Assembly (NCBI GenBank): GCA_028694995.1
Contig: JAQVJU010000001.1
Location: forward strand, 80,492 to 144,491
DNA: 64,000 bases
Reading direction: 5' to 3'
Source of the DNA: Minisyncoccota bacterium
Lineage (GTDB): Bacteria > Patescibacteriota > Minisyncoccia > UBA6257
Part shown: positions 1,285 to 38,405 of the stretch, one piece after another
How positions within the stretch are numbered: the stretch's first letter is position 1
How the letters are laid out: every line of letters starts with the position of its first letter
The notes under the pieces: model-generated
Told to the model about the DNA's origin: nothing
The model's database searches: none
Seen by the model: only the letters and a program-made list of their open reading frames with translations
Position numbers and translations under genes: made by a program

Positions 1285-3285
1285 AATTAAAACAATTAGG
1301 CTTGCCATTGACATTGTAAAACCTATCTTATCCCAAAGATTATAAGAATAATTTAAAATTACCTCTTGCTCAGTAGGAATAACAGCCATAAAGCTAGGAC
1401 TGATTAAATAAGGACCTTTACCTCCTTTTACCTGCCAACCAGGAAAATATGTATATTTTATTAAATGAAGTTTGCCTAATTGATTAGTTTTAAAAGATAG
1501 AGAGTCTTTTTCTATCTTTATTATCTCTATTGCTGCTTGTTTATTAGATGATTCTTTAGAATTTTCCAGATTGTCTTGAATATTTTTAAGTTCTTTTTTA
1601 TTTTTATAAAAAATGATTGGTTTTGATAAATCTGTTTCTTGATACCAATCAATAGATTGATCTAGCCAATGTTTGTTTTTCAAAATTAAGTCAAAATCTT
1701 CAAGAACTTCTACTAAATCTGAATTAGGCACTTCATAAACATTAAATTCTCCAATATTGTTTAATTTAATCAGGTGTTTATCTGCTAGGTTTTTAATATT
1801 TGGAGTAAAAGCAACAAAGTATTGAGCGCCAAAATATTGTAAATGCCTGACCCCTTTTTCAAAATCAAAGGGCGGATATTTTATTCCAGCTATGGCTGCT
1901 GTTGGTGTTTCTGTAGTTTCAGCTTGATTAAGAAAATGAAAATACCCAGAAAGAGAAGATTCAATTAATAAGCCTTCAAAGGTTGGTTTGTTAATCCAGA
2001 TCGGCAAATTTTCCAAAACCCTTGGGGTGCCAAATTTATCATATTCAGAACGATATTCCCACATTACTCTACCATATGGTAAATCAACTAAATAATCAGC
2101 TAGATCCTTTACTTCAGACCAGGTTTCCTTGCTTTGAAATCCCTCATAATTCCACTTTAGCCAAAAGGAAACATAAGATATATTCTCAGGCAGATAGAAG
2201 AAAATAAAACCAATTGAACATATTAAAAGACAAATAAAAGGAAGTAATTTTTTAGTTTTTTGCAACAAATAACCCAAACCATAAGCAGCTAACATTAAAT
2301 AACCCATGATAATAAAGGGCAAAAACCTAGTATTCCAAATGCTAGAATGATTTAAAACCAAAAATGGAATTAAAGAACTAATAATAATATAAAGAAAAGG
2401 AATAATTCTTTTTTCTTTTTTGATTAAAGCTAAGAAAAAACCTAAGATAGCCAATACTTGGAAAATTATTAAAGAAGAAGGAAAAATCTCACTAAGCTTA
2501 ATTACTTTTGTCCATTGCATTTTTGAGGTATAGGGTAAAAGCGCTAAAAAGGGTAAAGACCAAAATGCTGTTAAGGCAAAAGCCAGGCCAAATACTTTTG
2601 CTAAATACCAAAAAACTCTTTTGGTTTCTTTTTGTATTATGCTTTGAATAAAAAGAATAATACCAATTAAAACTGAAACCATTACTGGAAAAGGATGAAT
2701 AAGAACCATTAAAGATAAAATCGAGATGTTTAAAATTAAATACTTGTTTTCTTTAATTCCTTTTATTAATAAACCAACAAAAATAAAGAAAAGAGCAAAG
2801 GCGCAAGAATAAGAGAATTCACCAGCTAAAGTGCTTGGTATATTACCTCCATAAATAGAGAATTCTTCTAAAAAAAGATAACTTAAACTCAATAAAGCTC
2901 CAATTGATGGAATTGGAAACTTAAAATCAAGTAAATACAAACAAAGAAATATTGATAGAGGTAATAGAAAAGTTCCTGCTAAGGTAATTAATTTAAAAGC
3001 AATATTTAAAGGGATAAAAAAGCTCAAAATCACTGTTATATAATAGAGAAGAGGAGGATAAAAGTATAAAAATGGAAAACCAGCATACCAATCAGGAGAC
3101 CACCATTTTATTTTAGGAAAAATTTCCTGAGCATAATATGCAATATAATTATGCGAACCTGTATCGCCACCAGCAATCATCGTGTCAGTAAAAACTAATT
3201 TCCAGGGAATTTGATAAATCAAAAATCCATAAACCAAAACAAACATCAAAACAATGAAAATTTTCTGTAATTTAAGATATTTCAT
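1255..3285 (-). CDS. Large polytopic membrane protein, GT-C-like (ArnT/PMT/YfhO-type) putative glycosyltransferase with C-terminal extracytoplasmic domain
   Basis: The 676 aa protein has more than 10 predicted TM helices over its first ~420 aa, followed by a soluble domain. It sits in an operon with a GT2 glycosyltransferase, and the assignment rests on architecture only. Confidence 0.45.
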   Translation of the reverse strand: MKYLKLQKIFIVLMFVLVYGFLIYQIPWKLVFTDTMIAGGDTGSHNYIAYYAQEIFPKIKWWSPDWYAGFPFLYFYPPLLYYITVILSFFIPLNIAFKLITLAGTFLLPLSIFLCLYLLDFKFPIPSIGALLSLSYLFLEEFSIYGGNIPSTLAGEFSYSCAFALFFIFVGLLIKGIKENKYLILNISILSLMVLIHPFPVMVSVLIGIILFIQSIIQKETKRVFWYLAKVFGLAFALTAFWSLPFLALLPYTSKMQWTKVIKLSEIFPSSLIIFQVLAILGFFLALIKKEKRIIPFLYIIISSLIPFLVLNHSSIWNTRFLPFIIMGYLMLAAYGLGYLLQKTKKLLPFICLLICSIGFIFFYLPENISYVSFWLKWNYEGFQSKETWSEVKDLADYLVDLPYGRVMWEYRSEYDKFGTPRVLENLPIWINKPTFEGLLIESSLSGYFHFLNQAETTETPTAAIAGIKYPPFDFEKGVRHLQYFGAQYFVAFTPNIKNLADKHLIKLNNIGEFNVYEVPNSDLVEVLEDFDLILKNKHWLDQSIDWYQETDLSKPIIFYKNKKELKNIQDNLENSKESSNKQAAIEIIKIEKDSLSFKTNQLGKLHLIKYTYFPGWQVKGGKGPYLISPSFMAVIPTEQEVILNYSYNLWDKIGFTMSMASLIVLILFALALLPL

Positions 3286-3967
3286 AATGATGAAACTTAA
3301 TTTTAAACAAGTCAGTGAACATTCTAAGCATATGCGTTAGACGAAAAGTAGAAGCAGAAAATAATTCCTGTTTGACTATAATTTCAGTAATGGGATAATT
3401 TAATTTTCTTGCTAAATATAAAATCTCTATATCAATGGCAAATTCATTGGTGATTGATGCTGCTAGAATTTTCTTTCCAGCTTGTGTGTTAAAACCTTTA
3501 AGTCCGCATTGGGTATCAAGATATTTAAAACCAAAAAGAAGATATAATATTAGATAAAGAAAAGGCCTGAATAGTTTTTTATAAAAAACATCATTATAAA
3601 ACTCTTCACGGCGAGCAATGACAATAGCATTGCCTTGTTTTAATTTCTGAAAAACTCTTTCTATGTCTTGAGCTTTAAAAGGCAAATCAGCATCTGTAAA
3701 GATAATATATTTTCCTTGGGCTTGAGCAAACCCTTTTCGCAAGCTATAACCTTTTCCTTTATTTGTTTCATTTTCTAAATAAACAATTTGTTCTTGAAAA
3801 ATATCTTTGATTTCTTTAGTATTATCTGTACTGTCATCATTAATAATAATGATTTCCGCTTGAGGAAAATATTTAATTAAAGATAAAATTGTATTTTTAA
3901 TGGTTTTTTCTGATTGATAAGCAGGAATTACAATTGTTAATTCTTTTTGCCCTTTCTTTGTGTTCAT
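3272..3967 (-). CDS. Family 2 glycosyltransferase (polyprenyl-phosphate sugar synthase-like)
   Basis: It carries GT2 motifs (LTIVIPAYQSE, IIIINDDSTDNT, FTDADL DxD-like). It overlaps the upstream membrane protein gene, consistent with an operon. Confidence 0.8.
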   Translation of the reverse strand: MNTKKGQKELTIVIPAYQSEKTIKNTILSLIKYFPQAEIIIINDDSTDNTKEIKDIFQEQIVYLENETNKGKGYSLRKGFAQAQGKYIIFTDADLPFKAQDIERVFQKLKQGNAIVIARREEFYNDVFYKKLFRPFLYLILYLLFGFKYLDTQCGLKGFNTQAGKKILAASITNEFAIDIEILYLARKLNYPITEIIVKQELFSASTFRLTHMLRMFTDLFKIKFHHYEIS

Positions 3968-4068
3968 GATAATTTTATCATATCAATTTTATTCTTATTT
4001 TACCAGAAACTATTTTACAACTATTTACAAATTTGTTATAATAAAAACTACTTAAATAAGCGTTATTT

Positions 4069-4677
4069 ATGACTAATCAAAATTCTAATAATATGGTCTT
4101 AATCCCTACTGTGATTGAGAAAACTAATATTGGGGAAAGGGTTTATGATATTTATTCCCGTCTTTTAAAAGAAAGGATTATCTTCTTAGGTGGACCTATT
4201 GATGATGCCTTAGCCAATACTATTATTGCCCAATTATTGTTTTTAGAACATCAAGATAGCAATAAAGATATTCTTTTATATATTAATTCTCCTGGTGGCT
4301 CTGTCACCTCTGCCTTGGCTATCTATGATACAATGCAACATGTTAAATGCGATGTTTCTTCTTTATGCTTAGGCATGGCTGCTTCTGGAGCAGCTGTCCT
4401 CTTAGCTGCTGGCACTAAGGGAAAAAGATTTGCTTTGCCTAATGCAGAAATTCTTCTTCATCAGGTAATGGGACAAGCCGGTGGTCAGGCAACAGAAATA
4501 GAAATTGCTGCTAAGCAAATTCTCCGTGTTAAAAAACAATTAAATCAGCTTTTAGCTAAACATACAGGACAACCATTAACTAAAATCGCCAAAGAAACTG
4601 AAAGAGATTTTTGGTTAGTACCTGAAGAAGCTAAAAAATACGGTATTATAGATGAGATTATAAAACCTAAAAAATAA
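4069..4677 (+). CDS. clpP: ATP-dependent Clp protease proteolytic subunit
   Basis: It has ClpP signature regions ([43 protein letters not shown], the catalytic Ser in GMAASGAA and the His in LHQ). An extended -10 TGTTATAAT lies upstream at about 4037-4045. Confidence 0.9.
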
Positions 4678-4682
4678 AAAAC

Positions 4683-5849
4683 ATGTCAATTGAGACTCCA
4701 TCATTTGAAAACCTAAGAAGACAAACAGAGGAAGAAGTAACCGAAAGACTTGAAAAAGAAAGCCTACAAAGGAATATACAAGGAATGGATGAATTAAGAA
4801 GAGAACTAGATCAAGAATACAAAGAAATAGAAGAAAAGGAATACAAAGCTATTGAAGATAGAAATGAGATAGACAAAATCCAACAACAGCATGATAAACT
4901 GTCTTATTTAACTAAGGCCTATGAATTAGAATTAAAAGATATTGAACCAGATAAACCAGAATCAACATTAAAACCAACACCAAAAATAGATAAAGAAAGT
5001 ACACAGGCGCTAATAGCTAAAATAGATAATTGGAGAGAAAAATTAGATCAAGAATATGAAGAAATAGAAAAGAAAGAATACAAAATTCCTGAAGATTTTG
5101 AAGAACAGAAGATAATAGAAAAACAACATCAAAAATTATCTAATTTGGTAAAAAAACTAGAGCAAGAATTAAAAGAAGAGCCAAAAATAAAACTAAAACC
5201 AGAAAGCCCTTTGCCATCTTCAGAGGAAGAGTTTAAAGAATCTGCTGAACTTTTAAAAACGCTTCAAGAAGCTTCTGGGTATGAAGAAATATATGAAACT
5301 GAAGAACAAAACGATAAGAAAAACCAAGAAGAAAGCTTGGCAAAAGATACAAGTAAATCAGAAGCTGTTGAGCAAGAGAAAAAAGACAATGAAATAGAAA
5401 AAATAGAACTAGAGCTAAAAAGAACAGCTTTTAGGCATGGAAAAGACACTGAAAATATATGGCACCCAGATAATGTATGGCAACATATAAAAGACTCTTC
5501 TAATATATTTAATGATCCAGAAAAACAAAAGGATTTGATGGCCTTAAAAGATGATGTTGAAAAAATAGCAGAGGAAACAGATAATGCTTTTGAAAAACAT
5601 CCTCGTGCAATAAATAATGCATTTAAATTTATTAAAAAACAAGGAAAGAAAGGATTTGAAAAGCTTGGAACAATGAGCAAGAAAGGACTTGAAGTAATGG
5701 GGAAAGCAGGAAAAAAAGGAATTGAATCACTCGGAACAATTCTTGGTGTCTTTGCCTCAGGGATATTATTAGTATTAATCCTTTTTATGCTTTTAGAATT
5801 AAAAGCTGTTGATAAATTAGTTGATGCTGGTGGTAAAGTAAAAATTTAA
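4683..5849 (+). CDS. E/K-rich coiled-coil repeat protein with C-terminal TM anchor
   Basis: It contains two ~55 aa tandem repeats (LDQEY[KE]EIE.KEYK...) and three KKG[FLI]E.[LM]G. repeats, plus a C-terminal hydrophobic helix GILLVLILFMLL. It lies 5 nt after clpP and is not ClpX. Confidence 0.5.
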   Translation: MSIETPSFENLRRQTEEEVTERLEKESLQRNIQGMDELRRELDQEYKEIEEKEYKAIEDRNEIDKIQQQHDKLSYLTKAYELELKDIEPDKPESTLKPTPKIDKESTQALIAKIDNWREKLDQEYEEIEKKEYKIPEDFEEQKIIEKQHQKLSNLVKKLEQELKEEPKIKLKPESPLPSSEEEFKESAELLKTLQEASGYEEIYETEEQNDKKNQEESLAKDTSKSEAVEQEKKDNEIEKIELELKRTAFRHGKDTENIWHPDNVWQHIKDSSNIFNDPEKQKDLMALKDDVEKIAEETDNAFEKHPRAINNAFKFIKKQGKKGFEKLGTMSKKGLEVMGKAGKKGIESLGTILGVFASGILLVLILFMLLELKAVDKLVDAGGKVKI

Positions 5850-9821: not shown

Positions 9822-12209
9822 ATGAAAATAAAAAATGTATTTAAAATTGGGATTTTTGGCACTATCCTTTTGTTTTTATTAATAAGTCCTGTTTTTAAAT
9901 TCAATAACTTACAAGCATCTGCCTATACTTGCACTGAAGCTGGAGGAACATGTCGAGCAGGATGTAACAATGACGAAAAACCTGAATCACGGCTTACTTG
10001 TGCAGGTAGTTTCTTAAATACCAATTGTTGTGTCTCTGAGAAATTTAATTATGAACTATGGGTAGGGCAGCAAGAACTAAAATTACAACCTGTCTGTGTG
10101 CAAGCAGGATACATATGCAGGACCGCTTGTCATCAAGGAGAAGAAAGCATACAAGGGAATAACCTTTGCCCTATAGGACAAATGTGTTGTATGAATATTG
10201 CCACTGACAAGTTTCATCGAGAAGGATATGTTGAAGATGTGACTGGTACGGCTCAAGAATCAAATGCTGCAAAAATTTGTAATGCTCTTTTTTATGGAGG
10301 TGAAGACCCAAAAAGTAGGTTTGCTGAAATTTGGGGATGGGTAACAGGAGATGAAAACGCAAATGATACTTGGTGGGCACATAAAGCTTGTTTGGTTCAA
10401 ATAGGAGCTATTGAAGGACTTGGAAAAATGATTGGTGGAATGATTAATACATTAACAGGAAATATTCTTTGGGCTTTAAACCCTGATACTTATGGAGGGT
10501 TTGTTAAAAATCCTGGGGTAGTAGCAATTTGGGAAATCTTAAGAAATTTTATGAATTTAGCCCTTGTTTTAATCTTAATAATTATAGCTATTGCAACTAT
10601 TTTAGGAATTAAAAAATACCGCTGGCAAGACATCCTTTGGAAATTCATAGTTATTGCCTTACTTATTAACTTTAGCTTGGTTTTACCGGGCATAATATTA
10701 GATCTTTCTCAATTTACTACTTATGTATTCTTGAATTTATCTCGAGAAGCAACTGGCCAAAAAGATATTGCCCAAGCAATCATGGATAATTTTGCCACTA
10801 ATGAAATTTCAGGTGTTAAAAAATATAATTTTGCTTATGATGACAAAGCTGAAATTAAAACTATAACTGTAGAAGGGCAAGACATTAAGATGAGCACAAA
10901 AGGTTGGGGTCTTTCTTGGGGTAATTTCCTTCTTATTATCGCTGCCTTAGGTATAATTGGATTGTTTGTTTTTATCTCTTTAATCGCTATTTTCTTTGTT
11001 ATGGTTGCCCGGTCTTTTCTTATTATTATCTTACTTGCTGTTTCACCTATTGCTTTTGCTGCATGGGTATTGCCAAATACTGAAAAGTTTTGGAATTTAT
11101 GGTGGGGACAATTTTCTAAATGGTGTCTTTTTCCTATTACTTTTGCCATTTCTTTGTATGCAGGACTTGTTGTTGTATCTGAAATGAATGTTTTCCTTGC
11201 AAATCTTGGCGCTCAAGAAGAAAAATTAGGTATTATCACAATGATTATTCAAATAGTTCTCTTTTCTATGTTTTTAATTGGAGGATTAATTGTTTCAATC
11301 CAAAGTAGTGGCGCTGTGGGAAAAGTGGTTCAAAAACAAGTTAGTCGAGCTGGATGGCTTGCTGGAGCCTTTGTTGGGGCTAAAACAATTAAGGGAATTA
11401 AAGAAACTGGAATGTATAAAAAAGCAGGTGAAGCTTTGACTCATGTTCCTTTATTAAAAGGTGTTGGCCAAGAAATGTTAGTCACTGGAGAAAAAGCTAA
11501 GGCGACTAGAGTTAAAGAGTATGAAAAAGGCTTAGAGAATATAAGCTTGGGTAGCTTAAAGCAACTTGAAAAAGCTCCTTTACCATCTTCATTGGATAAA
11601 AATGCCTATGAAAAAAGAATTGCTTTGGTTAATAAATTAGCCGAGATGGGAGAATTAGGGGATGAATCTACGAAATTTATCAATCTCCATAAAGACGATG
11701 TTAGATTTAATAAAAAAGCTATCACTGAAGCAATTCCCCATGAATTTAAGGTAGAGGGAGGAAAATTAATTAATACCCCAGATTCAGTAGAAGAAAAAGT
11801 AGCAACTTTAACTTCATTAAAACCTGATAAATTAAAAGATAAAACCCAATTAAAAGATTTTGTTGAAAAAACTATAGACAAAGAATACCAAAAATCCATT
11901 GAGCAAGGAGCTTGGTTGCCCCATGAAACAGAAAAAGCCATGGAAGAAGCTTATGATAAGGTTTTCCAATCTTTAGTTAAAAAATTCTCAGCCTCACAAA
12001 TGGCTGCTTTTTGGAAAGGTTTAGGACCCAAGTATTTTAACGAAGAAAGACAAAAACTCTTTATAGAGTCAGTTAAGAGAGATCCTGCCGCATTAGCAAA
12101 ATTCAATAAACACATCAAAGATTCCCGGGCGCTAAGAGAAGAAAGTGGCATTGATCTAGAAAATACGCCTGATGCTTCAGCATGGGATAACATTTTTAAA
12201 GAAGAATGA
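9822..12209 (+). CDS. VirB6/TrbL-like polytopic membrane protein with N-terminal signal peptide and two tandem 6-Cys modules
   Basis: The 795 aa protein has a signal/anchor, then two C-x6-C-x3-C-x11/12-C-x5/8-CC modules, then at least 6 TM helices (aa ~230-500) and a charged C-terminal tail. It heads the T4SS-like cluster. Confidence 0.5.
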   Translation: MKIKNVFKIGIFGTILLFLLISPVFKFNNLQASAYTCTEAGGTCRAGCNNDEKPESRLTCAGSFLNTNCCVSEKFNYELWVGQQELKLQPVCVQAGYICRTACHQGEESIQGNNLCPIGQMCCMNIATDKFHREGYVEDVTGTAQESNAAKICNALFYGGEDPKSRFAEIWGWVTGDENANDTWWAHKACLVQIGAIEGLGKMIGGMINTLTGNILWALNPDTYGGFVKNPGVVAIWEILRNFMNLALVLILIIIAIATILGIKKYRWQDILWKFIVIALLINFSLVLPGIILDLSQFTTYVFLNLSREATGQKDIAQAIMDNFATNEISGVKKYNFAYDDKAEIKTITVEGQDIKMSTKGWGLSWGNFLLIIAALGIIGLFVFISLIAIFFVMVARSFLIIILLAVSPIAFAAWVLPNTEKFWNLWWGQFSKWCLFPITFAISLYAGLVVVSEMNVFLANLGAQEEKLGIITMIIQIVLFSMFLIGGLIVSIQSSGAVGKVVQKQVSRAGWLAGAFVGAKTIKGIKETGMYKKAGEALTHVPLLKGVGQEMLVTGEKAKATRVKEYEKGLENISLGSLKQLEKAPLPSSLDKNAYEKRIALVNKLAEMGELGDESTKFINLHKDDVRFNKKAITEAIPHEFKVEGGKLINTPDSVEEKVATLTSLKPDKLKDKTQLKDFVEKTIDKEYQKSIEQGAWLPHETEKAMEEAYDKVFQSLVKKFSASQMAAFWKGLGPKYFNEERQKLFIESVKRDPAALAKFNKHIKDSRALREESGIDLENTPDASAWDNIFKEE

Positions 12210-13243
12210 AAAAAGAAGAGTTCTTAAAAAAATTTGATGTTTTGCCAAAATCTCTCCAAGAAGCTCTTTATTCTGATAAAGTTATTTCTATCATCCAAGA
12301 CGCTGGCTCGCTTGCTGATTTAAATGAACAAGAGTTATTTATTTTAAATGAAATTGTTACTGATGTTCTTTTATTGAATATTTCTTCTGATGATTTTGTG
12401 ACAGAGTTAGAGTCTCGTTTAAAAATCAAGGATTCTTCTTTAAAGATTATCCATCAAATAATTCAAGATAAGATTTTTAATCAATACAAAAAAGAATTAC
12501 TGCAGTTTAAATCCAGGCCAATCACTTCTTTAGAAAAACCGCCAATGCAATTCAAAACACCAATTCTAGATAGTTTTGAAAAAAAACCTAAAAAAGAACT
12601 CTCTGAAAAAAATCAAATTACAAAAATTGATATTCAATCTGTTGCAGACAAAATAAAATCAGAGATAATAAAAGAACCCCTAGATCAATTCACTATACCT
12701 CAACCCAAAATTATTGAACCAAAAACAGAAAAACCTAAAGTAAAAATTACCGAATCAGAAATTACTAAACCTGAGCCAATTCCTGAATACATTACTCCTG
12801 AGCCAACAGAAATTAAAGTGACAAAACCAATAAATAAAGTAGAAGCGCTTAAAAAAGTTACCATACCAGAAACAACATTAATCAAACAAGAAAAAATCCG
12901 TAATAAATTGTTAGAAGCCATTACTAAAAAAGACACTCAACCTAAAATTGTAGAAGAAATAAAAAAAGTTTTAAAATCTAAAAAAGAAGATAAAGAAACA
13001 ATCGAAGAAAAACCTTTAGAGAAAAAGAAAACACCAGAAACAGAACCTTCCACTGTTTTGACAGGTAAAGGAGAAGAATTTAAAAGTGAAAAACCAATTC
13101 AAAAATCCACTGATAAAAAACCCTATGTTTTGGATGTTAAGTTACAAGAGATGAAAAAAAGATCAAAGGAAAAAGAGTTTGATCCTAAGCCAGTTCAATA
13201 TGAAAAGTATAAAAAGGAAAGTCCTTTTGGAAAAACATCATAA
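12206..13243 (+). CDS. K/P/E/T-rich low-complexity protein (T4SS-cluster associated)
   Basis: There are no TM segments and the protein is built of repetitive KP..E..K segments. The gene overlaps the upstream gene by 4 nt (operon). Confidence 0.35.
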   Translation: MKKEEFLKKFDVLPKSLQEALYSDKVISIIQDAGSLADLNEQELFILNEIVTDVLLLNISSDDFVTELESRLKIKDSSLKIIHQIIQDKIFNQYKKELLQFKSRPITSLEKPPMQFKTPILDSFEKKPKKELSEKNQITKIDIQSVADKIKSEIIKEPLDQFTIPQPKIIEPKTEKPKVKITESEITKPEPIPEYITPEPTEIKVTKPINKVEALKKVTIPETTLIKQEKIRNKLLEAITKKDTQPKIVEEIKKVLKSKKEDKETIEEKPLEKKKTPETEPSTVLTGKGEEFKSEKPIQKSTDKKPYVLDVKLQEMKKRSKEKEFDPKPVQYEKYKKESPFGKTS

Positions 13244-13249
13244 TTTATT

Positions 13250-13648
13250 ATGGCCTATCAAGTACCAAAATTTATAGAAGAAGAAACTAAATTAATGGGA
13301 TTAATTACCTTTACCCAGCTTTGGATTTTGTTAGGTTTTGCTATTATTCTTATTATCTTGTTTTTTCTTTTACAATTATGGCTTTGGTTTATTGTTTTTG
13401 CATTTATGGCACCATTTGGATTATTTCTTACCTTTGGTCAATTACATAACCAGCCAATTTATGCTCTGATCCTATCTGCTTTTCGTCATTTTTGGCTACC
13501 AAAATATTATCTTTGGCAAAAAGAACAAGTTATAAAAAAACCTTCTCCAGGTCCTTTATCCAAATATGAGAAAAGTGAAACAGTAACCACTCAAAAATCT
13601 TTAGACAAAGAAACACTTCAAAAATTAACTGAAATTTTAGATAAATAA
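13250..13648 (+). CDS. VirB3-like small two-TM protein
   Basis: The 132 aa protein has two adjacent hydrophobic helices (LMGLITFTQLWILLGFAIILIILFF.. / WLWFIVFAFMAPFGLFLTF). It lies immediately upstream of VirB4, as in Gram-positive-type T4SS. Confidence 0.45.
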   Translation: MAYQVPKFIEEETKLMGLITFTQLWILLGFAIILIILFFLLQLWLWFIVFAFMAPFGLFLTFGQLHNQPIYALILSAFRHFWLPKYYLWQKEQVIKKPSPGPLSKYEKSETVTTQKSLDKETLQKLTEILDK

Positions 13649-13649
13649 A

Positions 13650-14339
13650 ATGCCTCAAAAACAAAAAGAAAGTTTTAGTAGTCAATCACTTCTTTCTATT
13701 CATCAAATTAAAAAAGGAGTCGTTATCTTAAAAAACGGATCCTTACGTTCTGTTTTAGCTGTTTCTGGAATAAACCTAGATTTAAAATCAGAGCAAGAGC
13801 AATTTAGTATTTTAACTAATTGGCGCAATCTATTAAATAACCTGGATTTTACATTAGAAGTTATTGCTCATTCACGCCGTGTTCATATTGCGTCCTATTT
13901 AAACTTTCTTCAAGAAAAAATCAATCAAGAAACAAATACTTTGCTTAAATTACAAGGAGAAGATTATCACTCTTTTATTAAAGGCTTAGTTACTGAGAGT
14001 AATATTATGAAGAAAAAATTCTATGTGGTTATTCCTTATGATCCTATTATCCTTAAGCCAAAAGACATTTTTGGACAAATAGTGGAAGCATATAAAAACT
14101 TACTTAATTTAAAACATCAGGCTTTTTCTAAAACCCTTTCTTTGTCTAATGATGAATTTAATCAATATTATCAGCAACTGATGATTCGCCAAAACAATGT
14201 TATAAACAATTTCACTCGCATGAATTTACAAGCTCAGCCTTTGACAACTAAAGAATTGATAGAATTGTTTTTTAACTTATATAATCCAGAAACTTTTGAA
14301 AGAGAATCTATTCCTATTCCTTCAGAACTTAATGAATAA
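13650..14339 (+). CDS. VirB4/TraC-family ATPase, N-terminal domain encoded as separate ORF
   Basis: Its pattern (SIHQIKKGVVILKNGSLRSVLAVSGINLDLKSEQEQFSILTNWRNLLNNLDFTLEV) matches the conserved VirB4 N-terminus (..dGii.tkdg.y..il.v.piNf.LkseeEqe.i...f..fL..L). It ends 11 nt before the ATPase ORF, in a different frame. Confidence 0.55.
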   Translation: MPQKQKESFSSQSLLSIHQIKKGVVILKNGSLRSVLAVSGINLDLKSEQEQFSILTNWRNLLNNLDFTLEVIAHSRRVHIASYLNFLQEKINQETNTLLKLQGEDYHSFIKGLVTESNIMKKKFYVVIPYDPIILKPKDIFGQIVEAYKNLLNLKHQAFSKTLSLSNDEFNQYYQQLMIRQNNVINNFTRMNLQAQPLTTKELIELFFNLYNPETFERESIPIPSELNE

Positions 14340-14350
14340 ATAATACTATT

Positions 14351-16147
14351 ATGAAATTACCTTTCTTCTCACGGAAAAAACAAATAAAACCTCAAGAAGC
14401 TATTTATACTGAAGCTTTTTCCACGCTTCAAAATTTAATTGCCCCAGCTGGATTGGAAATAAACACAAATTATCTTAAATTAGGAGAACAATATTGTGCT
14501 ACTCTTTTTGTTTTAACTTACCCAGATTATTTAGCCTCTAATTGGTTTTCTTCAGTTATTAATCTTGATGAGTCTTTTAATATTTCTATCTTTTTCCATC
14601 CTCTTGATATTAATAAAGTTTTAAGAAATTTAAGGAAAAAATCTGCGGAAATTCAAGCTCAGATTAACATTGAAGCTGAAAGAGGATTGGTTCGTAATCC
14701 TTTATTAGAAGCAGCTTTATCTAATGTTGAAAAATTAAGAGATACGATCCAACAAGGCAGTGAGAGATTGTTTGACGTTGGTGTTTATATCACTTTTTTT
14801 TCTAATAGCCAGGAAGGGCTTTCAAAAGTAGAGAGTAAAATCCGAAATATATTAGAACAACAACTTATTTATGCCAAACCTGCTGTTTTTAGGGAATTTG
14901 AGGGATTAGAAAGCACTATGCCTCTTGGAGTTAATAGATTACTTTTAACCACACCTTTAAATTCTCAACCAGCATCTACTCTTTTTCCTTTTTCTTCTTT
15001 AGATCTTTCAGATAATAAAGGGATTCTTTATGGCATTAATATTCATAATAATAGTTTAATAATTTTTGACCGTTTTTCTCTTCCAAATGCAAATATGGTG
15101 GTTTTTGCTCAAACTGGAGCTGGAAAAAGCTATGCTATTAAATTAGAAATTCTCCGTTCCCTTTTATTAGGCACTAATATTTTAATCATTGATCCGGAAA
15201 ATGAATATCAATATTTAGCTGAATCAATTGGCGGCAGCTATTTTAATATTGCCGTGGCTTCTGAAGATAATATTAATCCTTTTGAATTGCCTCTGGTAAA
15301 AGAAGATGAGGAAACAAATGAAGAAGTTTTTAGAAACCATGTTTTGAGTCTTATTGGACTTATCAAATTAATGCTTGGCGGATTAACTCCACAGGAAGAA
15401 TTGATTTTAGATCAAGCCATTATTCAAACTTATGCCAGTCGGGATATTTTTCCTGAAAACATGACTGAACAAAAAGCACCACCTTTAATGGAAGATCTGG
15501 AAAATGTTCTTGAGAATATTGAAGGGGGAGAAGATTTAGCAGCTAAACTTTATAAATTCACTAAAGGGACTTATGCTGGTTTTCTTAATAAACAATCAAA
15601 CATTGATATTAATAACCGACTGGTTGTTTTTGGCATTAGAGAACTAGCAGATGAATTAAGACCTATTGCCATGTATGTTGTTTTAAACTATATCTGGACA
15701 ATGATAAAGAAAGACCTTAGAAAAAGAATTGCTATTATTGATGAAGGTTGGTGGCTTTTAAATCATGAAGAAAGCGCTTCTTTCTTGTTCAGTTTAATAA
15801 AAAGAGCCAGAAAATATTATTTAGGAGTCACCTTTATCACCCAAGACATTGAGGACGCCTTAGCTTCTCCTTATGGCAAACCTATTATTACTAATTCCTC
15901 TCTATCATTATTGCTTCGTCAATCTCCAGCAAATATAGAAATAATTGGCAAGGCTTTAAATCTTACTGAACAAGAAAAAACAATTCTTTTACAATCTCCT
16001 GTAGGCACTGGTTTGTTTTTTGCCCAAGAAAAACATGCGGCCATTCAAATTGTAGCTTCTTATGCAGAAGACCAAATTATCACCTCAAATCCTGCTCAGC
16101 TTTTAGCTATTAAAGAAGCGAAAAAACAATTAAAATCTGAGTCTTAA
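14351..16147 (+). CDS. VirB4/TraC/CagE-family T4SS ATPase (middle plus C-terminal ATPase domains)
   Basis: It has Walker A FAQTGAGKSYAIKLEIL and Walker B IAIIDEGWWLL. It also carries the VirB4 middle region (YCATLFVLTYPDYLASNWFSSV). Confidence 0.8.
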   Translation: MKLPFFSRKKQIKPQEAIYTEAFSTLQNLIAPAGLEINTNYLKLGEQYCATLFVLTYPDYLASNWFSSVINLDESFNISIFFHPLDINKVLRNLRKKSAEIQAQINIEAERGLVRNPLLEAALSNVEKLRDTIQQGSERLFDVGVYITFFSNSQEGLSKVESKIRNILEQQLIYAKPAVFREFEGLESTMPLGVNRLLLTTPLNSQPASTLFPFSSLDLSDNKGILYGINIHNNSLIIFDRFSLPNANMVVFAQTGAGKSYAIKLEILRSLLLGTNILIIDPENEYQYLAESIGGSYFNIAVASEDNINPFELPLVKEDEETNEEVFRNHVLSLIGLIKLMLGGLTPQEELILDQAIIQTYASRDIFPENMTEQKAPPLMEDLENVLENIEGGEDLAAKLYKFTKGTYAGFLNKQSNIDINNRLVVFGIRELADELRPIAMYVVLNYIWTMIKKDLRKRIAIIDEGWWLLNHEESASFLFSLIKRARKYYLGVTFITQDIEDALASPYGKPIITNSSLSLLLRQSPANIEIIGKALNLTEQEKTILLQSPVGTGLFFAQEKHAAIQIVASYAEDQIITSNPAQLLAIKEAKKQLKSES

Positions 16148-16157
16148 TTAAATATTA

Positions 16158-16604
16158 ATGACAGAACAAGCACCAAATAAAGAAGGATCTTTAATAGAAC
16201 AACAACCAACAGAACCTGTAGAACAAGAAACCTCTCCTTCCATAGAAGAAAAAACTTCCTCTGAAGAGAAAAAACCAGAAACAAAGCCAAAAGAAAAGAA
16301 GATGGATATTATTATCTTTCTTTTGCTTCTTATCCCTGCTATAATGAAGGATATTATAGAGATAGTTTTAGGCCTAATTCCAGGAATTAATTTTTTTGTC
16401 TGGTTGATAGCTCTTCCTTTTTCCGCTTATATATTATTTATTAGTATTATCACTGGTATAAGAACAAAATTAATCTTAGGTGGTCAATTAATAGATTTAT
16501 TACCTTTGGCTAGCATTCTTCCGATTACCACTGGAACTGTTATCTTTGCTTATTTATCACAAGGGGCTGTTGAAAAGGTTGCTAAAAAATCTTCTAAAAT
16601 ATAA
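16158..16604 (+). CDS. Small polytopic membrane protein with E/K/P-rich N-terminus (T4SS-cluster component)
   Basis: The 148 aa protein has three predicted TM helices after a charged ~45 aa N-terminus. Confidence 0.35.
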   Translation: MTEQAPNKEGSLIEQQPTEPVEQETSPSIEEKTSSEEKKPETKPKEKKMDIIIFLLLLIPAIMKDIIEIVLGLIPGINFFVWLIALPFSAYILFISIITGIRTKLILGGQLIDLLPLASILPITTGTVIFAYLSQGAVEKVAKKSSKI

Positions 16605-16633
16605 AGAATCATTTTAAAAAAATAAATAAAAAC

Positions 16634-17536
16634 ATGAAACAAACAAATTTTTATAATAAGATATCTGTATTCTTTTTGATTGTTTTTGTTGTAAATTTTC
16701 TTTTTTGGAATTTATTAATAACTAAAGAAGCTTTGGCTGCTTCTCAAGCTCGTTATTCTTGTGATTCAGCAACTAAGGAATGTTATCGGGATGATGAAAA
16801 TGGAGAATATACTTGTAAAATTCTCTGTAATAATAAATGTTCTGGAGAATCTCCGTCTTCTGTTGACCCTTCGCCCTTAAATCCAGGGTGTGGTTGTGGT
16901 GGAGGCGAGGCACAACCTGTTTATATTGTAGGTTCAGTAGAACAATCTGCTGCTCAAACCGAAGCTGCTAGAAATATCAAAACTTTACAAGATTTAGCAG
17001 ATATTTCTGGGATTACAACAGATTTATTGGACGAAGTAGAAGATGTTATTATAACAGGAAAAAACATCCCAGAAAAATTACAGGGATATTTTAATAAAGT
17101 CAAAGATAAAGGCAACTTTTCTGTTACTGATAAAAACATATTAGGGAATGCTATTAGTCAAGGATTGCCAATTCCTGAAAACTTGCGCTCAGATTTCCTT
17201 GAAGCAGCAATTCAATTTGGTGATATAAGTGATTTGGTTCAGGACAAATTTTTAGACTTACTAGGCGTTGGTTTAGATGTTGATTGGATTTGTGGAATGC
17301 TATCAAATGCAGCTACTGCTCTTCCTTGGGGATTAGGAGTTCCTGTTTCCATGGCCATTGGTGCAGCTTGCCCTATAATCCTAAAAGAGTTATTAGCTTC
17401 TTTAGGCGCTTATTCAACAAAACAAACTACAGAAGAATTAGTACAAACAATACCTGTGCCTACATTTCGATTTTTTCAATGGGAAGTTGGTTTGCCTGGA
17501 TTTTTTAAACCAGGACAAATATTAAAGTTTAAATAA
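16634..17536 (+). CDS. Exported Cys-rich protein (T4SS-cluster component)
   Basis: It has an N-terminal signal/anchor, a CDSATKECYRDDENGEYTCKILCNNKCSG Cys cluster and a GCGCGGG motif. There is a C-terminal hydrophobic segment. Confidence 0.35.
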   Translation: MKQTNFYNKISVFFLIVFVVNFLFWNLLITKEALAASQARYSCDSATKECYRDDENGEYTCKILCNNKCSGESPSSVDPSPLNPGCGCGGGEAQPVYIVGSVEQSAAQTEAARNIKTLQDLADISGITTDLLDEVEDVIITGKNIPEKLQGYFNKVKDKGNFSVTDKNILGNAISQGLPIPENLRSDFLEAAIQFGDISDLVQDKFLDLLGVGLDVDWICGMLSNAATALPWGLGVPVSMAIGAACPIILKELLASLGAYSTKQTTEELVQTIPVPTFRFFQWEVGLPGFFKPGQILKFK

Positions 17537-17544
17537 AACAATAA

Positions 17545-18405
17545 ATGTTTCTGTCTTTAAATCAATATTGTAATTTTAAGAATATCACTCTGTTCTTGAT
17601 TGTATTCATCTGTTGTTTAAATTTTAGTCAAGGATTAGTTGTTGAGGCTGCAAATAATTTTTCCTCTGAAGTAGTTGAATTAGATGCTAAGAATTCAGTA
17701 ACGGAATTAATTAAATATCTAGTTCAATGGGCTTTTAGATTAGCTGGATTATTCGCTTTTATTATGATTATTTATGCTGGATTTCAATATCTTACTGCTG
17801 GGGGAAATGTTGAACAACAAAAAGAAGCTCAAGAAAGAATTTTTAATACTTTTATTGGAATTGTTTTATTGTTTTCTTTCTGGCTTATTCTAAATCAAAT
17901 TAATCCTAATATCCTCCAAACACCAGAACCAAAACCATCAACAGCTAAGCCATCAGTGGAAACAGAACAATTACCAGTAACTGTAGGTAATTTTGTTTTA
18001 ATTGGAGCAGGCTCTGGTAAATATTCTAATATCCCATTGAGTTGGGAATTTCCCAATGGTGCTTATATTGAAGAAAGCGTTGCTGAAAGTTTATTGAACT
18101 TAGCTAATAGTAATGCCCCAAAAGGATGGCAAGTCACAGAAGCTTGTGTCTCAATCATTGGAAACGAGTGCGTCACTACAGTCCACCATGTGTCAAATTG
18201 CCATAAAATCGGTACTTGCGTTGATGTAGGATTTGGTGGAGACCCAGGTATTTCAACAAGAGCAGCTTTCATTAAAGCTGCTAATACCTCTGGTTTTGAT
18301 GTTATCGATGAATATTCAGCTGCAGGATCCCAATATGGAAGTGGTTTCCATCTTGAAATTAATATGCCTAATTGCAAAACCGGTGGTGCCTTCTTTTGCT
18401 CTTAA
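17545..18405 (+). CDS. TrbC/VirB2-like pilin-domain protein with C-terminal Cys/His-rich extracellular domain
   Basis: It has a signal peptide, then two hydrophobic helices separated by a short polar loop (FRLAGLFAFIMIIYAGFQYLTAGGNVEQQKEAQERIFNTFIGIVLLFSFWLIL), typical of conjugative pilin folds. A ~150 aa C-terminal domain follows, with HHVSNCH/GTC/CKTGG. Confidence 0.4.
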   Translation: MFLSLNQYCNFKNITLFLIVFICCLNFSQGLVVEAANNFSSEVVELDAKNSVTELIKYLVQWAFRLAGLFAFIMIIYAGFQYLTAGGNVEQQKEAQERIFNTFIGIVLLFSFWLILNQINPNILQTPEPKPSTAKPSVETEQLPVTVGNFVLIGAGSGKYSNIPLSWEFPNGAYIEESVAESLLNLANSNAPKGWQVTEACVSIIGNECVTTVHHVSNCHKIGTCVDVGFGGDPGISTRAAFIKAANTSGFDVIDEYSAAGSQYGSGFHLEINMPNCKTGGAFFCS

Positions 18406-20299: not shown

Positions 20300-21670
20300 A
20301 TGGATTTTCAAGAGCTCTGGGAATCAGCTTTAGGAGAAATAAAATTAAATATTTCTAAAGCTAATTATTTAACTTGGCTTAAAGACGCTTTTATTGTGGA
20401 TTTTAAGGAAAGTACTATTTTCTTAGGCGTCCCTTCTAATTTTACAAAAGAATGGTTAAAGAATAAATACAATAAACAAATCTTAGGCGCTCTTTGTAAT
20501 TTAGAACCCACAATAAAACAAATTGAATACATTGTGACTACAGACAAGACCGCTCTAAAGAAAATTAGTCAGGTTAAAAAAAAGCAATCTATTCAATCAA
20601 AAAAAACATCTGTTCTTGATGAACCTTTGGAATTTAATATTGATCCAGATACTAATTTAAATCCTAAATATACTTTTGAAAATTTTATTGTGGGTACTAA
20701 TAATGAATTGGCTAATGCTGCTGCTTTAGCCATTACAGAAAACTTAGGTAGTAAATACAATCCTTTGTTTATTTATGGCGGTGTCGGATTAGGGAAAACC
20801 CATTTATTACAGGCAATTGGTAATCGATTAAAATCAGAAAATAAAAAACTAAAAATTAAATATGCTTCTTCTGAAAAATTCACTGATGAGCTTATTAATG
20901 CTATTCGTAATCAGAAAATGACTGATTTTAAAAAAAGTTTCCGTAATTTAGACTTACTTTTAATAGATGATATTCAGTTTATTGCTGGAAAAGATAAAAC
21001 TCAAGAAGAACTCTTTCATACTTTTAATAATCTGCATGGAAAAAACAAACAAATTGTTTTTACTTCTGATCGGCCACCAAAATCCATTCCTTCAATTGAA
21101 GAACGTTTAAGATCTCGTTTTGAAGGAGGGATGATTGCTGATATTGGTTATCCTGATTTTGAAACTCGTTTGGCTATTTTAAAAGCCAAAAGTCAGGAAG
21201 TCAGTCATTTAATTGGAGAAGATGTTTTAAAATATATTGCTGAAACTATTTCTCGTAATATTAGAGAATTAGAAGGAGCTCTTAATAGAGTTATTGTTCA
21301 TGCTCGATTAAAAAATGGAATGATTACCATAGATGAAGTAAAAAAAATCTTATCTTCAATTTTAAATAAGGCTAATCAATATATTCCACCTAAGGAAGTT
21401 ATAAAAAAAATTGCCTCTTTTTATGACTTAAGTGAAAGTGAAATTTTAGGACATTCAAAAAAGAAAGAATTAGTAAAACCAAGACAAATTGTAATGTATC
21501 TTTTAAGAGAAGAATTTAAATATTCTTACACTAATATTGCTGAGAAAATAGGGAATCGAGATCATACTACAATTATCCATGCTTATAAAAAAATTGATAA
21601 AGAAATAGAAGAAAATCCAGTATTTGCTCAAGAAGTAAATATCTTAAAAGAGATAATTTATAACAAATAA
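20300..21670 (+). CDS. dnaA: Chromosomal replication initiator protein DnaA
   Basis: It has AAA+ motifs (GGVGLGKTHLLQAIGN, LLLIDDIQFIAGK) and a C-terminal DNA-binding domain. Confidence 0.95.
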   Translation: MDFQELWESALGEIKLNISKANYLTWLKDAFIVDFKESTIFLGVPSNFTKEWLKNKYNKQILGALCNLEPTIKQIEYIVTTDKTALKKISQVKKKQSIQSKKTSVLDEPLEFNIDPDTNLNPKYTFENFIVGTNNELANAAALAITENLGSKYNPLFIYGGVGLGKTHLLQAIGNRLKSENKKLKIKYASSEKFTDELINAIRNQKMTDFKKSFRNLDLLLIDDIQFIAGKDKTQEELFHTFNNLHGKNKQIVFTSDRPPKSIPSIEERLRSRFEGGMIADIGYPDFETRLAILKAKSQEVSHLIGEDVLKYIAETISRNIRELEGALNRVIVHARLKNGMITIDEVKKILSSILNKANQYIPPKEVIKKIASFYDLSESEILGHSKKKELVKPRQIVMYLLREEFKYSYTNIAEKIGNRDHTTIIHAYKKIDKEIEENPVFAQEVNILKEIIYNK

Positions 21671-21939: not shown

Positions 21940-23076
21940 ATGAAATTTACTACTTTAGTGGAAACAATTAAAAAAGCAATTAATTCTGCTGAGAAAATAA
22001 CCGGGAAAAATTTAACCCTTCCTGTTTTAAGTAATATCCTTTTAAAAACAAATACAAATAAACTTCATATCTTTGCCACTGATTTGGAAATTGGAATTGA
22101 GTTAGTGATTACTGGAAAAACTGAAAAAGAAGGTAAGTTTGTTATTCCAGCTAAAACTTTTTCTAATTTCTTGAATAATCTTTCAGAAGAAAAGATAAGT
22201 TTGGAAGAAAAAAACAATAATCTGATTGTTAAAAGCGGAAAATACAATACAACTTTTCAGGGATTTAATCCTGAAGAATTTCCTATTATCCCAGAAACAA
22301 AAGCAGATAAGTATATAGAAATAGGAAAAAGTGATTTTGAACAAGCTCTAATTCAGATTTTACCAAGTGTGAGTTATTCTTCTCCTAAGGCTGAATTAAA
22401 TGGAGTTTTGTTTAAATTAGAAATCTCAGAAAGTAAAAATACATTAAAATTAGTGGGCACAGATAGTTTTCGTTTAGCAGAAAAAATATTTCCTTCTTCT
22501 CAAGTAAAAACAAATATTAAAAATGATATTGAAGTAATTATTCCTTTAAGAACCGCTCAAGAAGTTTTAAGATTAGTTCAAGAGAATATGGAAAATGATG
22601 AATCTTTAATTAGAATAACTCCTGAATCAAATCAAATTCAATTTTCTTTTTCTAATATTCGGGTTATTTCACGCTTAATCAATGCTGATTATCCAAAATA
22701 TTCCTCAATTATTCCTAAGGATTTTGAGAATAAAATTATCTTTGAAAAAAAAGAATTAGCTGAAGCAGTGAAGATAGTGGGTTTATTCAGTGGTCGGGTT
22801 AATGATGTTAAATTCAGTTTTAATCCTGATAAAAAAGAGATTATTCTTGAAGCTCAAGATCTGTCTTTAGGTAAAAGCCAAACGGTATTAACCCCAAAAG
22901 AAATATCAGGCAATGCTTTAGAAATCAGTTTTAATTACAGGTTCTTACTAGATGGATTAAATGCTATCAAGAACGAAGAAGTTTTTATTGGTTTGAATAA
23001 AGAATCAAATCCTGGATTGATTAGAGATAAAGATAGTGATAATTTTGTATATATCTTAATGCCGATAAAGATTTAA
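21940..23076 (+). CDS. dnaN: DNA polymerase III beta sliding clamp
   Basis: The 378 aa protein has a three-domain clamp pattern. It is positioned after dnaA. Confidence 0.9.
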   Translation: MKFTTLVETIKKAINSAEKITGKNLTLPVLSNILLKTNTNKLHIFATDLEIGIELVITGKTEKEGKFVIPAKTFSNFLNNLSEEKISLEEKNNNLIVKSGKYNTTFQGFNPEEFPIIPETKADKYIEIGKSDFEQALIQILPSVSYSSPKAELNGVLFKLEISESKNTLKLVGTDSFRLAEKIFPSSQVKTNIKNDIEVIIPLRTAQEVLRLVQENMENDESLIRITPESNQIQFSFSNIRVISRLINADYPKYSSIIPKDFENKIIFEKKELAEAVKIVGLFSGRVNDVKFSFNPDKKEIILEAQDLSLGKSQTVLTPKEISGNALEISFNYRFLLDGLNAIKNEEVFIGLNKESNPGLIRDKDSDNFVYILMPIKI

Positions 23077-37145: not shown

Positions 37146-38405
37146 ATGGATATTTTAGATGATTTACAATACAGAGGATTAATCTATCAGGTTAGTAATT
37201 TAGAAGGATTAAAGAAAGAGCTTAAAAAAAGGCGACTTGTTTTGTATTGTGGATTTGATCCAACAGCAGATAGTCTTCAGGTTGGGAATTTGGTGCCTTT
37301 ATTGACTTTAAAAAGGTTTCAAGAAGCAGGGCATCAAATAATTGTTTTGATAGGCGGTGGAACTGGTTTGATTGGTGATCCAAGTGGGAAAAAAGATGAA
37401 AGAATTTTAAATCCTGAAAAAACAGTTAAAAAATGGGGTTCTTTGTTTAAAAAACAAATAGAAGGATTAATAGATTTTAAGAGAAAAGATAATCCGGCTT
37501 TAATAGATGACAATTACAATTGGTTAGCTAAGATAAAAACCATAGATTTCTTAAGAGATATTGGTAAACATTTTACTATCCCTTATATGTTAGCTAAAGA
37601 TGCAGTAAAGATGCGATTAGAAAGCGGAATTTCTTTTACAGAATTCAATTACATGGTTTTACAGGCTTATGATTTTTTGTGTTTGTTTAAAAAATACAAT
37701 TGTCAGATGCAGATAGGAGGCAGTGATCAATGGGGTAATATTACTGCAGGAATAGATTTGATACGGAAAAAAGAAGAAAAAGAGGTTTTTGGATTAACCG
37801 TGCCCTTGGTTTCTAAAGCCAGTGGAGAAAAATTTGGGAAAACAGAAACAGGCACTATTTGGTTAGATGGTCAAAAAACTTCTCCTTATCAGTTTTATCA
37901 ATTTTGGGTAAATACTGATGATAGAGATGTGATACAGTTTTTGAAATATTTTACCTTTTTGTCTAAAGAAGAAATTAATAATTTAGAAAAAAGTTTTCAA
38001 AAAAATCCAGAAAAAAGAGAACCGCAAAAAGCTTTGGCCAAAGAAGTTACCGCTTTGGTTCATGGAAAAGAAATGTCTTTAATGGCAGAAATGATTTCTC
38101 AAAAATTATTTTACAATGATTTTAAGAGTTTTTCTCAAAAAGAATTAGAAATGATTTTTAAGAATATTCCCTTAACTGTAATTGAAAAAATCAAGAACAT
38201 TGATTTAATTGAACTTTTAGTTAAAGCCAAGGTTTGTTCTTCAAAAAGACAGGCGAGGGAAGATATTAAAAATGGAATAATATTTATTAATGACAAGGCT
38301 TTTAAAGATAGTGAGATGCTAATTAGGCAAGGAGATTGTTTTTATGGTAAATATTTAATAGTTAAGAAAGGTAAGAAAAATTATTACTTTGTCTTGTGGA
38401 AGTAA
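37146..38405 (+). CDS. tyrS: Tyrosine--tRNA ligase
   Basis: It has a class I HIGH-region variant (CGFDPTADSLQVGNLVPL), a KMSKS-like KFGKTE and a C-terminal S4-like domain. Confidence 0.9.
   Translation: MDILDDLQYRGLIYQVSNLEGLKKELKKRRLVLYCGFDPTADSLQVGNLVPLLTLKRFQEAGHQIIVLIGGGTGLIGDPSGKKDERILNPEKTVKKWGSLFKKQIEGLIDFKRKDNPALIDDNYNWLAKIKTIDFLRDIGKHFTIPYMLAKDAVKMRLESGISFTEFNYMVLQAYDFLCLFKKYNCQMQIGGSDQWGNITAGIDLIRKKEEKEVFGLTVPLVSKASGEKFGKTETGTIWLDGQKTSPYQFYQFWVNTDDRDVIQFLKYFTFLSKEEINNLEKSFQKNPEKREPQKALAKEVTALVHGKEMSLMAEMISQKLFYNDFKSFSQKELEMIFKNIPLTVIEKIKNIDLIELLVKAKVCSSKRQAREDIKNGIIFINDKAFKDSEMLIRQGDCFYGKYLIVKKGKKNYYFVLWK

Follow-up and report, generated by a model that had tools for sequence, protein, structure and literature searches.

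The window analysed here is a stretch of 64,000 nucleotides (nt) from a Minisyncoccota bacterium (contig JAQVJU010000001.1, positions 80,492 to 144,491). Two adjacent open reading frames (ORFs) within it, termed ORF1 and ORF2, carry the sequence of VirB4, an ATPase of type IV secretion systems (T4SSs). The original prediction read them as a VirB4 gene divided into an N-domain ORF and an ATPase ORF, and offered a genuine split gene, a pseudogenising mutation or an assembly indel as its cause. The evidence described below points, with a probability of about 0.9, to a genuine two-cistron VirB4 in a T4SS operon that lies close to the origin on the chromosome of a Paceibacteria-like member of the Patescibacteria. 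The features concerned are as follows.

13650..14339, plus strand: ORF1, predicted stand-alone first N-terminal domain of VirB4 (TrsD/TraC-like), based on NCBIfam, BLASTP, Foldseek and the ratio of nonsynonymous to synonymous substitution rates (dN/dS)
14337..14353, plus strand: ORF1/ORF2 junction, consisting of the TAA of ORF1, an A/T-rich spacer of 11 nt and the ATG of ORF2 in another frame
14351..16147, plus strand: ORF2, predicted remainder of VirB4 (second N-terminal domain and P-loop ATPase), based on NCBIfam, Pfam and BLASTP

The two reading frames and their junction

In the ORF table, ORF1 starts with ATG, encodes 229 amino acids (aa) and ends with TAA at 14337-14339; ORF2 also starts with ATG and encodes 598 aa, which gives a sum of 827 aa. 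The frames of the two ORFs differ (13650 mod 3 = 0 vs 14351 mod 3 = 2). The original description of a TAA stop, a second ORF 11 nt later in another frame and a total of 827 aa is thus exact by both the ORF table and the junction sequence. The junction reads GAA TAA ataatactatt ATG AAA, and the assembled sequence in the region 14320-14360 includes GAATAAATAATACTATTATG. Upstream of its start, the frame of ORF2 is closed by a TGA at 14333-14335, which leaves a slot of about 3 nt as the only place where a single indel could merge the frames.

No Shine-Dalgarno motif was found in the 11-nt spacer before ORF2. In the plus-strand window genes inspected, such motifs occur at positions -22 to -9 in just 4 of 39, and leaders of plus-strand genes are A/T-rich as a rule (GC content of the window, 30.7%), indicating that the start of ORF2 resembles any other start in this genome. 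The missing motif was therefore dropped as an argument against independent initiation of ORF2. The four genes with a Shine-Dalgarno-like motif start at 37146, 42639, 56762 and 58274, and one of the motifs lies 22 nt from its start.

The conserved VirB4 N-terminal block that had been noticed in ORF1 is present as GVVILKNGSLRSVLAVSGINLDLKSEQEQ at residues 23-51. In NCBIfam searches, ORF1 matches positions 97-273 of the VirB4_plasma model (894 positions; E value 9e-10), positions 9-118 of the CD1110 VirB4 model and positions 16-151 of TIGR00929. In a Foldseek comparison of the ORF1 structure model with the PDB, TrwK/VirB4 chains from the T4SS of R388 fill all of the top 14 places, at E values from 9.6e-5 to 1.7e-3; the first match of another kind has an E value of 0.22. 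Among PDB chains, VirB4 was found by fold comparison only, a sequence search with the ORF1 profile giving nothing at E ≤ 1. A Pfam scan of ORF1 gave no meaningful match with the Pfam copy used, which is without PF26593 and PF27097. Precomputed matches to PF26593 (TraC-like) are present on all 120 ORF1 homologues listed and on the syntenic genes; they include the 98%-identical protein P0001, which carries PF26593.2 yet shows no match in the Pfam copy used, so that this copy evidently does not hold the model. Profile and fold evidence thus confirm ORF1 as a VirB4 N-terminal domain. NCBIfam, Foldseek and BLASTP agree on the similarity that the original prediction had ascribed to the 229-aa ORF.

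Searched against a library of 1.84 billion representatives, the ORF1 profile recovered 2601 proteins. Among the best 150 representatives of this family, 149 have at most 443 aa and the remaining one has 797 aa. About one quarter of the best 150 (within P0254-P0389) are 280-443 aa long, with a TrsD-like N-terminus and an uncharacterised C-terminal extension, and a few carry an N-terminal extension of 40-100 residues instead.

ORF2 scores 357.4 bits with the CD1110-family VirB4 model NF045971, above the curated cutoff of 325; it covers positions 185-729 of the 752 in this model and positions 284-893 of the VirB4_plasma model. Its Pfam matches are P-loop_TraG (E 4e-25), AAA_10 and DUF87, and a Walker A motif, GAGKS, is located at about residue 256. 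Ahead of this motif, residues 44-171 give a weak match to PF03135 (CagE_TrbE_VirB). The earlier label of ORF2 as the ATPase ORF holds in that the ATPase is present, and is incomplete in that a second N-terminal domain is predicted in the same ORF. By the predicted domain boundaries, the break falls within the classical N-terminal region of VirB4 and follows the first domain of that region. A complete pre-ATPase N-terminal region is provided by ORF1 and ORF2 jointly only, as ORF2 alone begins at position 185 of the CD1110 model.

ORF2 begins with an N-terminal extension of about 21 residues (14351-14413, MKLPFFSRKKQ...). The N-terminal consensus of the ORF2 family is M-x-x-x-P-F-F, with M-A/G-L/I-F in many relatives, and the extension resembles the N-terminus of TraE of the staphylococcal plasmid pSK41, MIMAFLKKKKQ (locus L085, from 26584). 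A MAFFT alignment had suggested that the N-terminal domains of ORF1 and ORF2 are paralogous, as after an internal duplication; hhalign gave E 0.29 over 38 columns, and the apparent paralogy was rejected as an artefact of misalignment.

Fused counterparts and conservation of the split

A 788-aa homologue of ORF2 that contains an ORF1-type domain, P0232, served as the fused reference. In BLASTP alignments, ORF1 residues 5-226 lie on P0232 residues 3-220 (38% identity, E 8e-43) and ORF2 residues 22-588 on P0232 residues 223-788 (57% identity), leaving a gap of 2 residues between the two segments. This tiling indicates that the break sits in an inter-domain linker; in the model of P0232, the linker at the break is of lower confidence (predicted local distance difference test score, pLDDT, 63-69). 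Over about 800 columns, the P0232 model can be superposed on full-length TrwK from one end to the other (E 4e-27; template modelling score, TM, 0.62). The coordinates of the NCBIfam models likewise run on from ORF1 to ORF2, from 97-273 to 284-893 in VirB4_plasma and from 9-118 to 185-729 in CD1110. The N-terminal extension of ORF2 is absent from the fused form.

The P0232 gene occupies the syntenic slot that the pair has in the window, with a 132-aa PrgI gene ahead of it and jag-yidC-rnpA-dnaA following. It belongs to a fused clade of at least about 110 clusters, with proteins of 771-809 aa that are named Harrisonbacteria, Colwellbacteria or Parcubacteria (L086, 5001-7367; P0390-P0507). A split relative, L088, has an overlap of 26 nt between its halves, which are 64% and 79% identical to P0232, suggesting that fused and split states interconvert among such relatives. 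The locus L087, with protein P0435 (596 aa, 87% identical to P0232), was considered as a very recent split and rejected as an artefact of 10 Ns inside a single-frame gene. The 596-aa protein, annotated as 'conjugal transfer protein TraC' of Candidatus Harrisonbacteria RIFOXYA1_FULL_48_8, is a truncated gene call; apart from the Ns, the gene at 2425-4773 is open in one frame and is 83% identical to P0232 residues 4-787.

Conservation of the split was analysed by locating both halves with tblastn in the window, in the syntenic loci L001-L004 and in 80 loci fetched from GTDB species representatives with an ORF2-family alignment. In all 83 loci with readable upstream DNA (the window and 82 relatives), a separate stop codon closes the N-domain ORF; they include 78 of the 80 fetched loci, and their ORF1 identities are 29-81%. 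These loci span Paceibacterota, Kaiser-, Zambryski-, Azam-, Jorgensen-, Wolfe-, Harrison-, Morani-, Andersen- and Nealsonbacteria. The comparison with orthologous loci that the original prediction had proposed thus yields a stop-separated pair in every case. The frame of ORF2 relative to the ORF1 stop is distributed over the three possibilities as 31, 31 and 21 loci, and the ORF1 stop codon is TAA in 63, TAG in 11 and TGA in 9. The spacing between ORF1 and ORF2 has a median of 6 nt, its extremes being an overlap of 35 nt and a gap of 462 nt; these values are approximate because ORF2 starts were set heuristically as the first ATG. Spacers of 66-119 nt occur in 11 loci, and in three loci an unrelated gene lies between the halves, all with matches above curated cutoffs:

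L011, 3538-3987: GxxExxY gene between the halves (TIGR04256, 102 bits)
L031, 2999-3382: four-helix-bundle gene between the halves (TIGR02436, 84 bits)
L081, 3609-3947: four-helix-bundle gene between the halves (TIGR02436, 115 bits)

The sizes of both products are conserved as well. All 120 ORF1 homologues listed are 225-229 aa long, with 63-98% identity, and 119 of the 120 ORF2 homologues listed have 496-607 aa; on syntenic contigs, a gene for 226-229 aa is followed by one for 594-597 aa. Near-identical proteins occur in independent assemblies, namely P0001 for ORF1 (98%) and P0121 for ORF2 (100%). In pairwise comparisons, dN/dS lies at 0.06-0.15 for ORF1 and at 0.05-0.12 for ORF2; these values are rough because dS is saturated, yet they are clearly well under 1. 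Both ORFs are under purifying selection, and the two cistrons encode complementary, conserved and constrained parts of VirB4. Conservation of the split in 83 of 83 loci, the mixed frames and spacers and the low dN/dS together show that the break is no assembly indel, no recent pseudogene and no conserved programmed frameshift.

An 835-aa ORF2 of a Moraniibacteria locus (L070, 3260-5767) was considered as a re-fusion and rejected, as its extra 247 residues give no match to the ORF1 profile. The stretch that they form at the N-terminus is rich in Pro, Ser and Ala, runs over the end of the TrsD-like gene and probably reflects an over-extended start call.

By similarity ranking, the named organisms of the best 120 hits and the 80 loci are Patescibacteria-type metagenome-assembled genomes (MAGs), the exception being P0050, named 'Bacillota bacterium'. 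The closest homologues are named Paceibacterota, Parcubacteria or Minisyncoccia. Many species-representative MAGs with the locus (within L006-L083) are titled 'uncultured Candidatus Saccharibacteria', 'Bdellovibrionales' or 'Gammaproteobacteria', which are probably generic or wrong bin labels.

Known systems, alternative explanations and a proposed mechanism

T4SSs have been surveyed in 3,035 Patescibacteria genomes (Quinonero-Coronel et al., 2025, Microb Genom; PMC12102498). TrsD was the most abundant T4SS component recovered, with 2,272 homologues in 2,221 assemblies, of which 1,664 were associated with VirB4; it shows remote homology to the VirB4 N-terminus and its gene usually adjoins virB4 (PMC12102498). 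The T4SS clusters are often near dnaA, and Ca. Southlakia epibionticum ML1 has a virB4-adjacent TrsD homologue that is listed as essential (PMC12102498). The window shares with these systems the VirB6-like protein, PrgI/VirB3, TrsD, VirB4, the VirB2-like pilin and a nearby dnaA, and nothing substantive differs. The likeness of TrsD to the VirB4 N-terminus is not traceable in the main text of Guglielmini et al. (2014), its source being PMC12102498 only. In the main text of the latter, the words 'split' and 'truncated' do not appear, and 'fused' or 'fusion' is used for VirB3-VirB4 only.

The staphylococcal systems of pGO1 and pSK41, with TrsD/TraD and TrsE/TraE (MPF_FATA, pGO1 subclass), have the same gene order as the window. 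In pSK41 of S. aureus, an annotated trsD of 227 aa ('TrsD/TraD family conjugative transfer protein') is located 14 nt upstream of a 672-aa DUF87 ATPase, compared with 11 nt in the window. ORF2 aligns with this ATPase from residue 1 of both (BLASTP, E 2e-37, 24% identity). A 135-aa hypothetical protein precedes trsD and shows a weak BLASTP match to the window PrgI over its hydrophobic stretch (E 0.008). The pSK41 system is very distant, being plasmid-borne and conjugative with a relaxase and a coupling protein, whereas the window locus is chromosomal. The layout known from the TrsD/TraD family NF041427, in which the gene of a protein of about 220 aa lies directly upstream of a short VirB4-type ATPase, is also found in the window.

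R388 TrwK, CD1110-family VirB4 and the fused P0232 have the same domains in the same order as ORF1 and ORF2 combined; unlike in full-length VirB4, the first N-terminal domain is a separate polypeptide in the window. The VirB3-VirB4 fusion Mbov_0397 of mycoplasma integrative and conjugative elements represents the opposite architecture, one polypeptide there corresponding to three in the window, and PrgI, ORF1 and ORF2 are colinear with its positions 16-125, 97-273 and 284-893. The ORF1/ORF2 pair is a normal, conserved gene arrangement that has already been published for Patescibacteria, which are ultra-small bacteria, and the arrangement is known in Firmicutes plasmids and across thousands of Patescibacteria genomes. 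The locus is one more copy of a widespread Patescibacteria T4SS. What is added here is the residue-level tiling onto a fused homologue and the coexistence of a fused clade (Harrison- and Colwellbacteria) with split forms. The tiling leads to the simple hypothesis that TrsD would be the detached first domain of VirB4, a small clarification and not a discovery. The practical use lies in annotation: 'TrsD-like VirB4 N-terminal domain protein' is the fitting name for the 229-aa gene, and marking the pair as a pseudogene with a frameshift should be avoided.

Several observations weigh against a two-cistron VirB4 or parts of that interpretation. The match of ORF1 to the TrsD/TraD model NF041427 (E 8.9e-9, positions 9-103 of 201) scores 35.4 bits, far under the curated cutoff of 200, which makes ORF1 a distant relative that falls outside this narrow Firmicutes subfamily. 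A comparison of the ORF1 profile with pSK41 TrsD by hhalign is weak (E 8e-4, probability 24%, 167 columns aligned). The AlphaFold model of ORF1 is of moderate confidence only (pLDDT 65), with a TM of 0.43 to TrwK. Lastly, the spacers of 66-119 nt in 11 loci and the inserted genes in three mean that translational coupling of the two ORFs is not obligatory.

The break could be an accident, in which an indel of sequencing or assembly, or a recent frameshift or nonsense mutation, turned an ordinary 800-aa virB4 into a pseudogene. The different frames at a distance of just 11 nt and the fused versions of about 790 aa in related Patescibacteria would suit such an origin, and annotation artefacts do occur, as exemplified by the 596-aa protein that a run of N produced in L087. 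The conservation of the split effectively refutes this explanation: the same break recurs in 83 of 83 loci at ORF1 identities of 29-81%, in every frame relation and with many spacer lengths. A near-identical pair in independent assemblies, dN/dS of about 0.1 in both halves, the proper ATG of ORF2 with a conserved N-terminal extension that the fused form does not have, and the confinement of a frame-joining indel to a slot of about 3 nt also speak against it. Both the assembly indel and the pseudogenising mutation considered in the original prediction are accordingly set aside as extremely improbable, and its genuine split gene is strongly supported. That the ribosome joins the ORFs into a full-length VirB4, through a programmed -1 frameshift or by bypassing the stop codon, is just as hard to believe. 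The adjacent ORFs do stand in a -1 relation, and a ribosome re-pairing at GAA 14334-14336 could in principle enter the frame of ORF2; however, no slippery motif is conserved among the relatives, nor is a frame relation (31/31/21), their spacers vary between -35 and +462 nt, an unrelated gene separates the halves in three loci, and ORF2 has its own ATG in every locus. Moreover, the halves are in frame yet stop-separated in 21 loci, and the stop is TAA in 63 of 83.

A somewhat less remote but still improbable explanation is that ORF1 is an independent accessory T4SS protein, TrsD, which is distantly VirB4-like and not just the domain that ORF2 lacks, with a function of its own, for instance in regulation, in the control of stoichiometry or in the handling of substrates. 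In the literature, TrsD counts as a separate component without an assigned function, and Gracilibacteria TrsD homologues are reported as unlinked to virB4 (PMC12102498); some family members of 300-443 aa have extra C-terminal regions, and other genes can separate an ORF1-type gene from virB4. Yet ORF1 supplies exactly the segment missing in ORF2, as judged by the tiling on P0232 and the NCBIfam models, fused relatives occupy the same syntenic slot after PrgI, and the identities of 64% and 79% between the halves of L088 and a fused protein imply that the two states interconvert.

For a two-cistron VirB4, the following mechanism is proposed. The products of ORF1 and ORF2 would be translated separately from one operon mRNA. 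Initiation at ORF2 would probably be coupled to termination at ORF1, because the spacers usually comprise a few nt. The two polypeptides would then reassemble non-covalently into a VirB4-like unit, in which ORF2 would form the hexameric motor and the TrsD-like domain would supply a membrane-proximal, VirB3/PrgI-facing, dimerising surface. The latter role is proposed by analogy with the N-terminal domain of R388 TrwK, as in R388 structures the VirB4 N-terminal domains link each dimer's protomers, lie embedded in the membrane and contact VirB3 and VirB8 (PMC12857230).

It is conceivable, although rather unlikely, that the split is not neutral and allows the copy number or timing of a free TrsD-like protein to be set apart from that of the motor. 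Such a protein may, for example, sit in the membrane bound to PrgI/VirB3 and serve as an adaptor by which the ATPase is recruited or gated, and, more speculatively, the N-terminal peptide of ORF2 (M-x-L/I-P/x-F-F) may be a docking element. If so, the repeated switching between fused (Harrison- and Colwellbacteria) and split forms would mark functional differences between T4SS variants.

The T4SS operon and the origin region

The operon (9822-18405) is tightly packed, with inter-gene gaps of -4 to +29 nt, and contains T4SS components on both sides of the pair: a TrbL_3/VirB6-like first gene and PrgI upstream, and a T4SS_pilin gene as the last. The other genes of the operon and those of the adjoining origin region are listed below.

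9822..12209, plus strand: first operon gene, polytopic membrane protein (VirB6/TrbL-like) with a Cys-rich N-terminal region (NCBIfam, synteny)
12206..13243, plus strand: Lys/Glu/Pro-rich protein of 345 aa, conserved by position, with a gene of about 300 aa in the same slot in L001-L003
13250..13648, plus strand: PrgI family (VirB3-like) small membrane protein, 132 aa (PF12666, 27.7 bits vs a cutoff of 27)
16158..18405, plus strand: three downstream operon genes of 148, 300 and 286 aa, the last T4SS pilin-like; same synteny in L001-L004
18413-23076: origin-region genes jag (KH/R3H), yidC and rnpA on the minus strand, then dnaA (20300-21670) and dnaN (21940-23076)

The product of the first gene gives sub-threshold NCBIfam matches to the MMCAP2_0566 and Mbov_0396 conjugal-transfer membrane protein families, and its syntenic counterparts in L001 and L003 carry PF19590 (TrbL_3). 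The 12206-13243 product has no Pfam or NCBIfam match. The PrgI gene ends 1 nt before ORF1, and on the fused Mbov_0397 VirB3-VirB4-type model its product aligns with positions 16-125; L001-L004 and L086 also have a 132-aa gene in this slot. The 17545-18405 product matches PF18895 (T4SS_pilin) with E 2e-14 and, below threshold, the Mbov_0395 pilin-like family (34.2 bits vs a cutoff of 40). The neighbouring ORFs scanned, a set that leaves out most other window ORFs, gave no match to a relaxase or VirD4-like family.

After a signal-like segment, the VirB6/TrbL-like protein contains two similar Cys-rich modules, CTEAGGTCRAGCNNDEKPESRLTCAGSFLNTNCCVSE and CVQAGYICRTACHQGEESIQGNNLCPIGQMCCMN, and the 300-aa downstream protein (16634-17536) has a further Cys-rich stretch, YSCDSATKECYRDDENGEYTCKILCNNKCSG. 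No family match was found for the Cys-rich modules of these two products; they may be small extracellular modules of the disulfide-knot type. At its other end, the operon is preceded by ksgA, as in the syntenic loci.

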